Positions 57,277 to 62,278 of a stretch of DNA of 64,000 nucleotides are shown here, piece by piece (positions within the stretch are counted from its first letter, which is position 1; each line of letters starts with the position of its first letter). The translations under genes were made by a program, and so were the position numbers. Under the pieces are notes generated by a model. It saw only the letters and a list, made by a program, of their open reading frames with translations, was not told where the DNA came from and did no database searches. Source of the stretch: an uncultured Flavipsychrobacter sp. (GTDB lineage: Bacteria; Bacteroidota; Bacteroidia; Chitinophagales; Chitinophagaceae); assembly GCA_964588295.1 (NCBI GenBank), contig CAZPOT010000003.1, positions 135,785-199,784 on the forward strand. Reading direction: 5' to 3'.

Positions 57277-57367
57277 TTAAATTCCAAGAGCCAAATTCCA
57301 AACTCCAAAGGCCCGCCGCAAGGTGGGCTTTTTGTTTCTTTTGGGCATTGCGAATGGTAATACCCGA

Positions 57368-57486
57368 CGCCCGATGAAAAAATAAAGAACCGGAATTTTA
57401 GGTTTTTATGTATTGATTATCAAAGCAAGGACGGAGGACAGACACCCGATTTGCACCCGACATTACCCGGTTACACCCGGTAGGCA
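57368..57486 (+). repeat. ~125 bp tandem-duplicated intergenic element, copy 1
   Basis: CGCCCGATGAAAAAATAAAGAACCGGAATTTTAGG...CCCGACATTACCCGGTTACACCCGG. Confidence 0.75.
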
Positions 57487-57615
57487 GAAAATGGTTGTCA
57501 GAATCAGAATTGGCCAGAATTATAGACTTTACGAAATACCTGCATAGTGTTACGGTGAGCTTGTCGAATCCGCGACACGGACATGGGTGGGCCCGGCAAA
57601 TGGGAACACACCCTA

Positions 57616-57741
57616 CACCCGATGAAAAAATACTGAACCGGAATTTGAGGCTATTATGTATTGATTGTCAATAGGAAGCGGGAAAACCAACACCCGGTTT
57701 AAACCCGACATTACCCGGTTACGCCCGATTGCCGGACAATG
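57616..57741 (+). repeat. ~125 bp tandem-duplicated intergenic element, copy 2
   Basis: CACCCGATGAAAAAATACTGAACCGGAATTTGAGG...CCCGACATTACCCGGTTACGCCCG; roughly 75-80% identical to copy 1 by eye. Confidence 0.75.
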
Positions 57742-57970
57742 CAGCTGCCAGTGCAGGCGGTGCCGTAAAGTGATAGAGCGATAAGTCAAAGAGCGGGAAA
57801 CACGGTTATTCCCAAGCTGCAAATTGCACCTAATAATGACGGCTGCCAAATTGAATTTGGCTATGGGCTATAGTGCGGGTAAATATGTGTATAACTCCGG
57901 TGAGTTGCTACGATTTATTGGCCAAACACGGTCATTGCGACGAAGGAAGCAACCTCGCAAGCGGTGGAGT

Positions 57971-58282
57971 TCACGAAATAGCCTCGCTTAGTAATGATGA
58001 GATTAATTCCTGTATATCTCCATTAGTTGGCTGCTCTTCAGTTTCCTCAACATCATCAAATTCATGGTAATCATGGTCAATTTCTAGATCAAATGGATAA
58101 TGATGCAAGTCTTTTAAATGCCAATCACTAACAAAGAACCAAAGTCCATAGATCAAACGGCTTCTAAGGAAGTCTCTTATATACTCTACTGCTAACTTAT
58201 TTTTATTTGTGTAAACTACTTCTCCGCACTGTTTGTAATTTCCAGCGTCGCGATATAGGTAGAGTAGCTTAATGTTCATCAA
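57971..58282 (-). CDS. hypothetical protein (103 aa) with acidic C-terminus
   Basis: AT-rich ORF divergent from the NUDIX-helicase operon; ...HEFDDVEETEEQPTNGDIQEL tail; no known domain. Confidence 0.45.
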   Translation of the reverse strand: MMNIKLLYLYRDAGNYKQCGEVVYTNKNKLAVEYIRDFLRSRLIYGLWFFVSDWHLKDLHHYPFDLEIDHDYHEFDDVEETEEQPTNGDIQELISSLLSEAIS

Positions 58283-58346
58283 ACAAAGTTAGCCGCGCTG
58301 TTATTCGTCACGTTGGCTTTTAAGTCACGTTAGGATAAAACAAAAA

Positions 58347-58766
58347 GTGGTATTTTGTACCACTATGGATAAGCCGATTATTAACGTTACCTGCGCTATA
58401 ATTCAGAATGAGGGAAAAGTATTTGCTGCACAACGTAGTGCTTCAATGCGTCTTCCCCTGAAATGGGAATTTCCAGGTGGTAAAATAGATGCAGGCGAAA
58501 CTGACGAGCAATGTATATTGCGAGAACTAAAGGAAGAGCTCGGAATAAACGGCGAAATCATCGAACGGCTGAATGCTTGCGCTTTTGAATACGAACATAA
58601 TATTGTTAATCTCATTCCTTTCATTGTTCGCCAAAAAGATGGAGTAATTGCTCTTACTGAACATGCACAATACATTTGGGCCGACATACCAACATTAAAA
58701 CAATTAGATTGGGCACCTGCAGATATCCCCATCCTTAACGATTATATTCGCCAATATGGAACTTAA
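58347..58766 (+). CDS. NUDIX (MutT-like) hydrolase
   Basis: Nudix box GGKIDAGETDEQCILRELKEELGI; about 135 aa; start may be ATG at 58365 (MDKPII...). Confidence 0.85.
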   Translation: MVFCTTMDKPIINVTCAIIQNEGKVFAAQRSASMRLPLKWEFPGGKIDAGETDEQCILRELKEELGINGEIIERLNACAFEYEHNIVNLIPFIVRQKDGVIALTEHAQYIWADIPTLKQLDWAPADIPILNDYIRQYGT

Positions 58767-61700
58767 ACTCGGACTCTATGAACAACTAATTAACCAACTA
58801 GTTGATGAACGTATCAAACTATTGGATACAGATACCTATTACATAAAAGAAACAGCATTAGATAAGGCTGAGGCATCTGAATACCTTAGTAGATACGTAG
58901 CAGATATAGTTAAACAAGCGCTTTCCCGGATCAAAGGCGAAGAAGTATTGAAAAATCAAATAGAATTAGCAAATTCGATCTTACAGTTGCTCAGCGAAAA
59001 AATATCTGCCGACGATTTTTCAAGTAATATTCTTGATACGCAAGGTCGAATATTAAATGCAATAGTATCGAAGGTAAATAGCGATCATGCAGATATTGCA
59101 GAACACATCCAGAAAATAACTCCCTATACTCGTTTTTCTCAAAGCGAATTATTTACAGGAGGTGCTACCAATGTCAGTATTACGCTAGAAAGCGAACTAA
59201 AAAAAGAAATACAGTCCGCGAATGAAATTTATTTTCTGGTATCATTTATAAAATTTGCAGGTATTCGCATTTTTTATAAGGAGTTGGAAGCATTTACGCA
59301 CAACGGTGGTAAGCTGAAGATAATTACCACTTCCTACATGGGTGCAACAGATCTAAAAGCAATTGAGCTGCTGAGTAAACTAGAGAATACTGAAATTAAA
59401 ATTTCCTACAACACGCAGGCCGAAAGACTACATGCCAAGGCATATCTATTTTTAAGAGATACTGGATTTCATACCGGATATATCGGTTCGTCAAATTTAT
59501 CCCGTTCTGCCGTTACCAACGGTATGGAGTGGAATATCAAAATAACAACAAGAGAGGTTGGGCATCTTATTGATAAGTTCAAAAAAACATTTGAAACCTA
59601 TTGGAAGGATGCTTCGTTCGAAATATTTGATTCAGCAAAAGACACAATCAAATTAAAAACTTCACTTGAAGCACAACGGGCCACGATAGCGCTGAACACT
59701 ACTTTCTTCGATATAACCCCTCACCACTATCAGAAAGAAATTTTAGAAAAACTAATTGCTGAAAGACAAATTCACAATAGATTCCGGAACCTTATTGTGG
59801 CTGCTACAGGAACTGGCAAAACAGTAATAGCTGCTTTCGACTTTCAACGATTCCTAACTGTAAATAAGTACGCGAGGCTGCTATTTGTGACACATAGAAA
59901 AGAAATATTGCTTCAAGCGTTGAGTACTTTTAGAGGCGTACTGAAGGATGCTAATTTTGGCGAATTATGGGTAGATGGCATAATGCCAACTAAGCTCGAT
60001 AAAGTCTTAGCATCTGTTCAAACACTCAGCAGTCAATTGTCGTCGAAAAATCTAACCTACGACTATTACGACTATATAGTAATTGATGAGGTACACCATA
60101 TAGCTGCTGCTAGCTATAGACCAATCCTCAACCAGTTTCAGCCATCTATTTTGCTTGGCCTTACTGCCACTCCAGAAAGAATGGATAATGAAAATATCCT
60201 TTCAGATTTTTGCAATGTAATTGCCGCAGAAATAAGGCTGCCTGAAGCGTTAAATCAGCAATTACTTTGCCCATTCCATTATTTTGGAATTTCGGATAGC
60301 GTTGACTTGTCTCATGTAAAGTGGGATAAAGGAAGATATCTTCAGTCAGAATTGGAGGTGCTCTATACAGGTAATAAGCAAAGGCTTGGAGAAATAATTA
60401 CCAACCTTGACAACTACTTGACGGACATCCACAATGTCCGCGCCCTTGGGTTCTGTGTTTCTCAGCAGCATGCGCGATATATGGCTGAAGGCTTTAATAG
60501 TGCAGGGTTGAGTGCCGCATACCTAACAAGCGAGAACAGTAACGATCGCGAGACAATTAGGCTTAATCTGAAAGAAAGAAAAATAAACTACCTTTTTGTG
60601 GTAGATATTTTTAACGAAGGTGTGGATATACCTGAGATTGACACTGTTCTTTTTCTGCGTCCTACCGAAAGCTTAACTATATTTTTACAACAGTTGGGAA
60701 GAGGTTTGAGAAAGGCTAATGGAAAAGAATGCCTTACTGTTCTAGATTTCGTGGGTAATGCTAGAATGGAATACGATTTCGAAAAGAAATTCAGAGCTTT
60801 AATAGGCAGAACAATTTCGAGTACACAAAAAGAAATTGAGGATGACTTTCCGCATTTACCTTTAAATTGTTCCATAATACTGGAACGAAAGGCAAAGGAA
60901 TATATTCTACTTAATATCAAACGTGCTACATCCCTCGGTAAGCGGCAGCTGATTGATAAAATAAGAAGCTACCATTACGATATAGACCTGCCGCTTACAT
61001 TAAAGAATTTTATTGAACTATATAATCTTTCTTTACTGCAGATATATAAAGGTGGCAAATTCTGCTTTACCTCTTTGAAGAGGGAGGCAGGGCTATTAGT
61101 TAACAGTACAACAGTAAATGAGGCTGAAATAAGCCGGGCTATTTCAAAAAAGTGGTTGACTTGTAGTTCTTACAGTTATCTAACTTTTATCCTCAACGCT
61201 GCAAAACAAAATTTTAAACTCGACTTTGCCAACTTAACAGAGAATGAAAAGCTTATCTGTCAAATGCTTTACTATGATATTTGGCAAAATGCAAATGAGT
61301 TCTCTACTATAGAAGCGAGTTTTGAGGCAATAGGTAGCAATGAGCATCTGACAGATGAGATAATTGATGTTATTGAACTAATCATTGATAAAATTGACTT
61401 TGTTGAAAAGGACATTGATCTTGGCTATGCAATGCCTCTAAAAGTGCACAGTAGATATACCAAGGATCAAATATGTGCGGCATTTGAAGAAAGTACTATA
61501 AATAAAAAGTCATCGTCACGAGAAGGGGTGATCCTAATTGCAAAGAAAAATACGGAGCTTCTGTTCATCACTTTACAAAAAAGCGAAAAAGAGTATTCTC
61601 CTACTACGCTTTATGATGACTATGCCATTAACGAAACACTATTTCACTGGCAGTCACAAAATTCGGCACGGGCAGACTCAGGTAAAGGACTTACTTACAT

Positions 61701-61908
61701 CGAGCAGCACAAAACCGGTAAAAAAATATTGCTATTCGTTAGAGAAGCTAACGAGGATGAAAATAACAATACCATGGGTTATGTATTTCTGGGTGAAGCA
61801 AAATATGTAGATCATTATGGTGAAAAACCAATGAGTATCACTTGGGTTTTGAATGAGCCGATACCAGAGTATATGTGGAAGAGTTCCGCAAAAATGGCTA
61901 CGGGTTAA
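58756..61908 (+). CDS. PLD-family nuclease / SF2 DEAD-DEAH helicase / DUF3427 fusion protein (1050 aa)
   Basis: HKD motif LHAKAYLF...GSSNLSRSA (PLD/NgoFVII-like) at about aa 200-260; helicase motif I AATGTGKT, II VIDEVHH, III LTATPER, VI QQLGRGLR; C-terminal about 250 aa DUF3427-like; 11 nt overlap with NUDIX gene. Confidence 0.85.
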   Translation: MELKLGLYEQLINQLVDERIKLLDTDTYYIKETALDKAEASEYLSRYVADIVKQALSRIKGEEVLKNQIELANSILQLLSEKISADDFSSNILDTQGRILNAIVSKVNSDHADIAEHIQKITPYTRFSQSELFTGGATNVSITLESELKKEIQSANEIYFLVSFIKFAGIRIFYKELEAFTHNGGKLKIITTSYMGATDLKAIELLSKLENTEIKISYNTQAERLHAKAYLFLRDTGFHTGYIGSSNLSRSAVTNGMEWNIKITTREVGHLIDKFKKTFETYWKDASFEIFDSAKDTIKLKTSLEAQRATIALNTTFFDITPHHYQKEILEKLIAERQIHNRFRNLIVAATGTGKTVIAAFDFQRFLTVNKYARLLFVTHRKEILLQALSTFRGVLKDANFGELWVDGIMPTKLDKVLASVQTLSSQLSSKNLTYDYYDYIVIDEVHHIAAASYRPILNQFQPSILLGLTATPERMDNENILSDFCNVIAAEIRLPEALNQQLLCPFHYFGISDSVDLSHVKWDKGRYLQSELEVLYTGNKQRLGEIITNLDNYLTDIHNVRALGFCVSQQHARYMAEGFNSAGLSAAYLTSENSNDRETIRLNLKERKINYLFVVDIFNEGVDIPEIDTVLFLRPTESLTIFLQQLGRGLRKANGKECLTVLDFVGNARMEYDFEKKFRALIGRTISSTQKEIEDDFPHLPLNCSIILERKAKEYILLNIKRATSLGKRQLIDKIRSYHYDIDLPLTLKNFIELYNLSLLQIYKGGKFCFTSLKREAGLLVNSTTVNEAEISRAISKKWLTCSSYSYLTFILNAAKQNFKLDFANLTENEKLICQMLYYDIWQNANEFSTIEASFEAIGSNEHLTDEIIDVIELIIDKIDFVEKDIDLGYAMPLKVHSRYTKDQICAAFEESTINKKSSSREGVILIAKKNTELLFITLQKSEKEYSPTTLYDDYAINETLFHWQSQNSARADSGKGLTYIEQHKTGKKILLFVREANEDENNNTMGYVFLGEAKYVDHYGEKPMSITWVLNEPIPEYMWKSSAKMATG

Positions 61909-62278
61909 AATCGTTTTCAACTTCCCAGAATATATATAGACATTCAGGATTAGTGCATGTATTCAATATTGCGGGGAATCCTGTTTCATCCCATGTGGTT
62001 CGCCATCCACAGTGCGGACATGTTGAAGGCTGGTCTGTAGTAAAATATACATCAAACGGCATTCAGCAAATATCTGAAGGCGATACTATTTCACATTTGC
62101 TTTTAAGTCACGTCTCCTATCTGGCTATGTGAGTTAGCGCGAGGTGGGCACTACGATGAACCCAGCATGTACACATGGTACATCCATCCCCCGTGTCGTG
62201 GATTTACCTTCCGACAAGCTCAACGTGACACGCTGTGATTAACTCGGCGCGAGCGAAAAGTTAAGCCTTTAAAAACAA

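Follow-up and report, generated by a model that had tools for sequence, protein, structure and literature searches.

A low-GC islet in an uncultured Flavipsychrobacter sp. as a likely SauUSI-family Type IV restriction cassette with an overlapping NUDIX gene

SauUSI is a characterised Type IV restriction enzyme of Staphylococcus aureus (PMC3141236; structure in PMC7913695), for which the order PLD, helicase and DUF3427 and the cleavage of DNA containing 5-methylcytosine (5mC) or 5-hydroxymethylcytosine (5hmC) were reported in 2011 (PMC3141236). Its structure (PDB 7CLG) is that of a dimer in which each chain comprises an N-terminal PLD nuclease, a superfamily 2 (SF2) ATPase, a helical coupler and an SRA-fold target-recognition domain, the PLD nuclease domains forming the dimer interface (PMC7913695). 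Linkage to a conserved MutT/NUDIX gene is on record for sauUSI and at least 60 SauUSI-like genes, and the function of that gene was left unexamined when the linkage was described (Xu et al. 2011, PMC3141236). This gene was deleted in S. aureus in 2012 (PMC3312211) and its family is represented in PADLOC as PDC-S07, which in Streptococcus suis was co-localised with Type IV restriction-modification systems in 23 of 23 cases (bioRxiv 10.1101/2025.08.29.672906). Here, we describe a related locus in a 64,000-nt stretch of an uncultured Flavipsychrobacter sp. genome (contig CAZPOT010000003.1, positions 135,785 to 199,784; hereafter the window, in which all coordinates are given unless a locus is named). 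A low-GC islet at 57950-62120 in this window is very likely a horizontally acquired Type IV, that is modification-dependent, restriction cassette of the SauUSI family together with its known NUDIX partner. The original prediction, made from the sequence of the window, had taken the pair of genes for an undescribed defence module; the locus is a further example of a described system, and the NUDIX pairing has been in print since 2011.

The large gene of the islet (58756-61908, + strand) encodes a protein of 1050 amino acids, hereafter REase (restriction endonuclease), whose enzyme family and architecture can be assigned to SauUSI with high confidence. REase matches mREase_IV PDLC03659, the PADLOC model for Type IV methyl-directed restriction enzymes, over nearly the full length of the model (E=5e-225; residues 120-1047 against positions 14-942 of 945), its residues 1-119 lying outside, and a second mREase_IV model, PDLC03658, with E=8.8e-91. 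The best match to a solved structure is 7CLG (E=2.6e-87), with which REase aligns collinearly (residues 146-1020 against 42-919). By Pfam, the domains are PLDc_2 (residues 149-283), ResIII (320-475), Helicase_C (551-652) and DUF3427 (809-1042), which confirms the domain order that had been read from the sequence, namely an N-terminal region of about 150 residues without assignment, then PLD, SF2 helicase and DUF3427. This order had been thought to match no named system, a view that does not hold, as it is the architecture of SauUSI. On the DNA, the PLD (HKD) nuclease domain occupies 59191-59604 (+; PF13091 E=2e-12, PF09565 E=3.7e-8), the SF2 helicase-like ATPase 59713-60780 (+; PF04851 E=4.2e-38, PF00271 E=6e-11) and the DUF3427 region with an SRA-like target-recognition domain 61180-61905 (+; PF11907 E=3.9e-35). 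Residues H226 and K228 pair with SauUSI H119 and K121 in the 7CLG alignment, and these two residues as well as the helicase motifs AATGTGKT (349-356, Walker A), DEVH (444-447), TATPER (470-475) and QQLGRGLR (645-652) show no variation in an alignment of 11 subfamily sequences (A1). Four of the six residues of the SauUSI base pocket are kept (F841 as F937, I842 as I938, D858 as D955 and W868 as W965), among them the cytosine-contacting Asp and the stacking Trp. REase very probably reads a flipped cytosine derivative, of which the modification and the sequence context may differ from those recognised by SauUSI, and a dependence of the enzyme on cytosine modification is probable.

Both systems thus carry a PLD nuclease, SF2 ATPase, helical coupler and SRA-like DUF3427 domain collinearly in a single polypeptide, keep the catalytic His/Lys pair and the helicase motifs, have a NUDIX gene directly upstream and lack a methyltransferase. 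They differ in that the match is a distant one, with a sparse alignment to 7CLG, in the phylum of the host, in an N-terminal extension of REase and in the small accessory genes, P54 and P103, that accompany some members of the REase subfamily.

A strong compositional contrast speaks for acquisition of the cassette. The GC content of the islet is 0.377 against 0.481 in the remaining window, and the islet is the lowest-GC 4.17-kb stretch in the whole 64 kb, about four standard deviations (sd) under the mean (mean 0.475, sd 0.024). GC content at third codon positions (GC3) is 0.30-0.35 for the islet genes versus 0.56-0.70 for the flanking genes, an S8 peptidase gene on one side and an ABC-2 permease gene on the other. 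A low-GC islet had been predicted at this place and is borne out by these figures, and the proposal of a horizontally acquired defence module is supported by the GC and GC3 contrast, by flanks that vary between genomes and by the Type IV match. The prediction also held that the islet contains only three open reading frames (ORFs). The three that it named are present at the coordinates given for them, but a fourth conserved ORF was overlooked, so that the cassette comprises four genes: P103, NUDIX, REase and P54. No methyltransferase ORF is found among the ORFs of the islet.

The NUDIX gene (58365-58766, +) encodes 133 amino acids from ATG 58365, the start taken in the public gene call; an alternative start at GTG 58347 would give an ORF of 139 amino acids (58347-58766). 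Its stop codon (TAA, 58764-58766) lies within an 11-nt overlap with the start of the REase gene, ATGGAACTTAA (58756-58766, +), from which co-translation of the two genes had been proposed. The census of this linkage covers 80 species-level genomes with REase orthologues of 57-84% identity, at 77 of which enough upstream sequence is available. A NUDIX gene lies directly upstream on the same strand at 45 of the 77 loci, and in 43 of these 45 pairs stop and start codons overlap, by 1-23 nt (ATGA in 30 pairs, 11 nt in three). Since the upstream position and the overlap recur to this extent, the operon and its translational coupling are considered real and conserved. For S. aureus, we infer from the deletion primer that 1 nt separates the nudix stop codon from the sauUSI ATG (PMC3312211). 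A perfect palindrome with 7-bp stems, AGTGGTA-CAAAA-TACCACT (58346-58364), is located directly before the NUDIX ATG; it was flagged as terminator-like on the minus strand and could be a 5' hairpin or operator of the NUDIX-REase operon.

The NUDIX protein is of the MutT/NudG type by its Pfam matches (PF00293 E=1.2e-17; PF14815 E=5.9e-13), and it matches the whole PADLOC PDC-S07 model (E=3.7e-46, residues 7-135 against 3-130 of 135). It does not differ in kind from the PDC-S07 family or from S. aureus SAUSA300_2432, which occupies the same place directly upstream of the Type IV gene. Among solved structures, the NUDIX protein is closest to PDB 5X1X (E=4.9e-27), for whose organism or substrate a literature search gave nothing relevant, and Escherichia coli NudG (2RRK, E=2.2e-19). 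With NudG, it shares 34% identity over 131 aligned positions, an intact Nudix box and the C-terminal APADIP motif, whereas E. coli NudG is encoded by a stand-alone chromosomal gene without linkage to a restriction enzyme. The Nudix box GX5EX7REUXEEXGU is intact, GGKIDAGETDEQCILRELKEELGI, and its catalytic positions are unvarying in all 46 linked NUDIX proteins. The same 46 proteins have Asp at the position of MutT Asn119, as do NudG (D118) and 5X1X. Asn119 of MutT is a base-contacting position. E33, R72, R77 and D118 of NudG (Orf135) have been linked by mutagenesis to substrate recognition; the equivalents of E33 and D118 are conserved in the NUDIX protein and those of R72 and R77 replaced. 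The protein may work in a NudG-like manner, yet, with a score below the cut-off of the NCBIfam NudG model, it cannot be filed as NudG. As for the chemistry of such enzymes, NudG is classed among the 5-methyl-dCTP pyrophosphatases (kcat/Km ~3x10^5 M-1 s-1), and MutT, too, favours 5-methyl-dCTP over dCTP (PMC5389931, PMC3744803, PMC5158307).

A working model can be put together from these parts. The C-terminal SRA-like domain of REase would flip a modified cytosine of the 5mC or 5hmC type into its pocket, the flipped base would activate the SF2 ATPase, which would then move along the DNA, and the N-terminal PLD nuclease domains would then cut the foreign modified DNA. A methyltransferase would not be needed, because the host would lack the mark. 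The NUDIX protein, translated from the same mRNA as REase and, judged by its sequence, a catalytically intact MutT/NudG-type nucleoside-triphosphate pyrophosphohydrolase, would in the role that we prefer hydrolyse modified dCTP (5-methyl-dCTP or 5-hydroxymethyl-dCTP) to the monophosphate. This could serve self-protection, in that modified dNMPs that arise from the breakdown of invader DNA, or that a phage produces, would be kept out of the host chromosome, where a modified cytosine would become a target of the cell's own REase; it could also starve phages that build their DNA from modified dCTP of their precursor. Hydrolysis of a modified dNTP, or self-protection, had already been suggested for the NUDIX protein in the original prediction and is still a reasonable idea. 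As the partner enzyme would attack DNA carrying 5mC or 5hmC, removal of modified dCTP is the most economical hypothesis, and it fits both the upstream, antidote-first position of the gene and the finding that restriction is unaffected by deletion of nudix. We nevertheless put forward clearance of a modified pyrimidine deoxynucleoside triphosphate, such as modified dCTP, only tentatively, at somewhat less than an even chance. If true, a role of the NUDIX protein as an immunity factor would explain a coupling of MutT/NudG-like proteins to Type IV enzymes that has been left unexplained since 2011, and the linkage at 45 of 77 loci, the overlaps in 43 of 45 pairs and the invariant Asp sharpen the clearance hypothesis into a testable one. 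In the literature searched, no functional test of a Type IV-linked NUDIX protein from any organism was found.

A number of observations weigh against parts of this model. For REase, the equivalents of two pocket residues are not conserved: SauUSI Met829, which inserts into the gap that the flipped base leaves in the duplex, and Tyr831, which contacts the methyl group (PMC7913695), align with G924 and I926, so that the modification recognised may differ from that of SauUSI. For the NUDIX protein, the best NCBIfam match, NudG NF007834, reaches 98.7 bits and thus remains under its cut-off of 156, MutT TIGR00586 gives 91.2 bits under a cut-off of 97.9, and F80 and N85 (139-aa numbering) stand where NudG has R72 and R77. 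We infer the specificity of both enzymes from homology. The NUDIX gene is absent from 32 of the 77 REase loci and is therefore dispensable for REase. Monk et al. (2012) report that S. aureus Newman retained restriction and acquired no transformable phenotype upon deletion of nudix, and the deletion was not reported to be harmful (PMC3312211). P54 and P103 occur at only five and eight, respectively, of the 80 REase loci. The AlphaFold2 models of REase and P103 are both too poor for use: full-length REase, modelled from an alignment of 11 low-diversity sequences, has a predicted local distance difference test score (pLDDT) of 49.9, and P103, modelled from five sequences, one of 55.5.

Among other explanations for the NUDIX gene, the one that survives best is that its product is an independent single-gene defence element or effector which, upon infection, depletes canonical dCTP, CTP or some other nucleotide, or destroys a nucleotide signal or cap, and merely shares an operon with REase. 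PDC-S07 is a candidate listing in PADLOC in its own right and has been called in Streptococcus thermophilus UCCSt95 and 4052, although the table concerned is confined to non-R/M systems and would not show an adjacent Type IV gene; NudG also acts on CTP and dCTP (PMC5158307), and related NUDIX genes are found in phages (phrog_1198, E=3.7e-25). Set against this are the conserved overlap with REase and the complete co-localisation in S. suis, and no anti-phage phenotype of a Type IV-linked NUDIX protein is reported in the literature searched. We regard this explanation as unlikely. Still less probable is an ordinary MutT-type 8-oxo-dGTP sanitiser that has been carried along without a tie to restriction. 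The TIGR00586 score lies near its cut-off, and the S. aureus gene has been read as degrading mutagenic nucleotides, its deletion leaving restriction unaffected (PMC3312211), but all 46 linked proteins have Asp in place of MutT Asn119, the GC3 of the NUDIX gene is as low as that of REase and unlike that of the flanking genes, and the overlapping-operon layout is kept across Bacteroidota, with nudix directly upstream of sauUSI in S. aureus as well. A housekeeping mutT orthologue, which had been named as an outcome contrary to a defence role, is accordingly not what the gene appears to be: it travels with REase, lies in the low-GC islet and scores below the MutT and NudG cut-offs.

The alternative that PLD, helicase, DUF3427 and NUDIX together form an undescribed defence system with a new mechanism draws on two features that have not been described for SauUSI, the P54/P103 pair and the conserved N-terminal extension of REase (residues 1-145; 58756-59190, +). 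The extension comprises about 120-145 residues, and REase has about 100-120 residues more than SauUSI at its N-terminus. The PADLOC model leaves residues 1-119 uncovered and the SauUSI alignment residues 1-145, and residues 1-145 have no significant match in Pfam, PDB or PADLOC. It is conserved in the subfamily, with many invariant residues in A1, and the best 120 REase homologues are all 1044-1050 amino acids long and aligned at 100% coverage. The subfamily with the extension is large and belongs chiefly to the Bacteroidota; AlphaFold2 predicts the region as helical at low confidence (pLDDT <55). That REase matches both the Type IV model of PADLOC and SauUSI over almost its entire length, and that the NUDIX pairing has been published since 2011, nonetheless make a new mechanism highly improbable. 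That REase is instead a RadD-like DNA-repair helicase or an orphan Type I/III restriction subunit can be dismissed as next to impossible, for its partial matches to RadD, EcoAI HsdR and Hef (PDB 6JDE, 3H1T) cover the helicase core only and stay far under the curated cut-offs (e.g. 105.9 versus 720 bits), no HsdM, HsdS or Mod gene is present near REase in the ORF listing, and the SauUSI architecture alone explains the PLD and SRA-like domains.

Other defence systems with a PLD nuclease or SF2 helicase domain in common with REase were compared and rejected. The match to DrmC of DISARM (E=3e-5) is confined to the PLD domain and the other components are absent; Mokosh has only domain types in common with the locus and its other components are likewise absent; PbeA matches the helicase only (E=1e-34 versus 5e-225 for Type IV). 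The likeness to DISARM and Mokosh that had been pointed out is thus one of shared domains, and neither DrmA/B/C with a methylase nor MkoA/B was found as a full set. Both genes of the pair are already recognised by current tools such as PADLOC, as a Bacteroidota member of the SauUSI family. New here are the REase extension, the fourth ORF, P54, and the relation of P54 and P103 as split halves; the remaining interest of the locus, which we rate as low to moderate, rests on the role of the NUDIX protein and on the P54/P103 pair.

P103 is a small acidic protein, whose family is uncharacterised and is found repeatedly next to nuclease genes. Its ORF spans 57971-58282 on the minus strand (103 amino acids), or 57971-58279 from ATG 58279 (102 amino acids). 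The family comprises 968 cluster representatives at E<=1e-3, and its near-invariant residues (Y, Y, R, D, N, K, N, F, D, E) include polar ones that suggest a binding or active site. P103 has no match in Pfam, NCBIfam, PADLOC, PHROG or PDB, and a profile of 97 sequences likewise finds none in Pfam or PDB. Where it accompanies REase, P103 mostly lies just downstream; relatives adjoin the NUDIX-REase pair (L082, L083), an HNH_2 nuclease (L084) and, elsewhere, a helix-turn-helix protein with a Schlafen-like helicase. P54 (61898-62062, -) is a Cys-rich, zinc-ribbon-like protein of 54 amino acids (CPxC...CxxxxC), which overlaps the 3' end of REase by 11 nt and is absent from the public gene call. 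Its homologues come solely from tblastn and hidden Markov model searches of the fetched loci; a word-based database search gave no match, and profile searches of Pfam, PHROG, PADLOC, NCBIfam and PDB gave no significant one. In five other genomes (L003, L004, L051, L066, L081), P54 homologues are encoded directly upstream of NUDIX.

P54 is homologous to the N-terminal zinc ribbon of fused proteins of the P103 family (P0136, E=4e-9; P0212, E=2e-7), and in others (P0184, P0226) the zinc ribbon is found at the C-terminus instead. P54 and P103 are the separately encoded halves of what other organisms make as a single fused protein. In Mucilaginibacter, the gene order is P54, NUDIX, REase, P103, and in L084 the HNH_2 nuclease is bracketed by a P54-like ORF and P103. 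The pair belongs to a family of small uncharacterised proteins, with about 1000 sequence clusters, whose members are fused or split depending on the organism and recur beside different nucleases. It is plausible that P54 and P103 are an accessory or regulatory pair; the zinc-ribbon half and the half with the uncharacterised domain would be optional accessories of the cassette, possibly DNA-binding regulators. A functional tie to the nuclease seems possible, though we give it slightly less than an even chance. The combined proposal, that the NUDIX protein is a dedicated immunity factor for modification-dependent restriction and that P54 and P103 are an undescribed split zinc-ribbon pair bracketing SauUSI-like and HNH_2 nucleases, is speculative and on balance unlikely to hold in full.

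Further sites of the P103 family beside differing nucleases or helicases include L084:2355-2681 and the contig of P0125. At six or seven orthologous loci, an HNH_2 nuclease gene (PADLOC HNH PDLC04132, E down to 1e-88) is located directly downstream of REase, for instance at L047:8179-8949 and L076:8140-9129, plus four or five more. At L076, the HNH_2 gene is followed by an 82-aa 'YNYEGxHFR' ORF and then by P103; P0160, in which a NUMOD1 motif is detected, carries the same 82-aa domain in fusion with P103.

A direct repeat, D2, is associated with both small genes. The 23-nt copy 1, TCACGTTGGCTTTTAAGTCACGT, is located at 58308-58330 in the divergent intergenic region between P103 and NUDIX, 26-29 nt upstream of the P103 start, and copy 2, TCACATTTGCTTTTAAGTCACGT, at 62091-62113, 29 nt upstream of the P54 start. 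The copies are identical at 21 of 23 positions, contain two ACGTGA-like hexamers and are the only two in the 64 kb, with none in 100 shuffles. Over 21 nt, copy 2 agrees exactly with the NUDIX-P103 intergenic region of L082 and L002, and copy 1 is followed, immediately ahead of the P103 ATG, by a -7 box of the Bacteroidota type, TAACTTTG. D2 suggests a common regulation of P103 and P54, for which it is perhaps a promoter or operator. A scan for sigma-70 promoters, whose consensus is ill-suited to Bacteroidota, was not above chance (18 found versus 14.3 expected), and neither was the count of terminators.

REase orthologues are spread over the Bacteroidota, and the nearest relatives are metagenome-assembled genomes of Chitinophagaceae (L002, 84% identity). 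A few orthologues occur in Pseudidiomarina, Sulfurimonas and Leptospiraceae, a distribution which indicates that the gene has been transferred across phyla; those at L036, L065 and P0112 are ~58-62% identical and belong to Pseudidiomarina (Gammaproteobacteria), Candidatus Sulfurimonas (Campylobacterota) and a metagenome-assembled Leptospiraceae genome. The flanks vary, and families from outside the module recur at seven of the 80 loci at most. By Pfam and PADLOC, the 128 nearest flanking ORFs are mostly housekeeping genes with a defence-type minority (six HNH, two Type II restriction-modification, two PDC-S02/YhcG and three AriA/AAA_21). At two loci, an Eco47II-type restriction enzyme and a C-5 cytosine methyltransferase are encoded beside the 5mC-type Type IV gene (alignment A3), an arrangement that would require non-overlapping site specificities to prevent self-restriction.

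In the two closest relatives, L002 and L082, the module lies beside the same S8 peptidase gene in reversed orientation relative to the window (P103-NUDIX-REase at L082:1971-6549 and L002:3950-8540, against 57768-61946 here) and between inverted arrays of 50-130-nt repeats, with ccsA and a glutamate dehydrogenase gene on the far flank in place of the ABC-2 permease gene. The difference is an inversion or rearrangement between flanking inverted repeats. A phase-variable inversion was considered and not adopted, given the dissimilar far flanks and the lack of a neighbouring recombinase gene. No empty insertion site was found, the closest relatives L002 and L082 also carrying the module, and no integrase marks the insertion. 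Rfam (E<=1) and tRNA scans returned nothing in 54-64 kb or in the window, and there is therefore no tRNA insertion site.

Between the terminator of the S8 peptidase gene and the islet, a 132-nt direct repeat, D1, is present at 57362-57493 and 57610-57741; the copies are ~80% identical and are the only two in the window, and D1 has no Rfam match and no significant fold. Next to D1, there is an element of ~50 nt (57543-57592) that in L002 and L082 occurs several times, in inverted arrays, on either side of the module, and a remnant of it of 20-26 nt is located at 62212-62237 in the window. Finally, some 3.7-4.3 kb past the right end of the window (L001:10825-11441), a VapBC-like toxin-antitoxin pair, made up of an 81-aa ORF and a PIN-domain gene, lies downstream of the ABC-2, TatD, ThiF and DinB genes, and a similar pair is found at an equal distance in L082.

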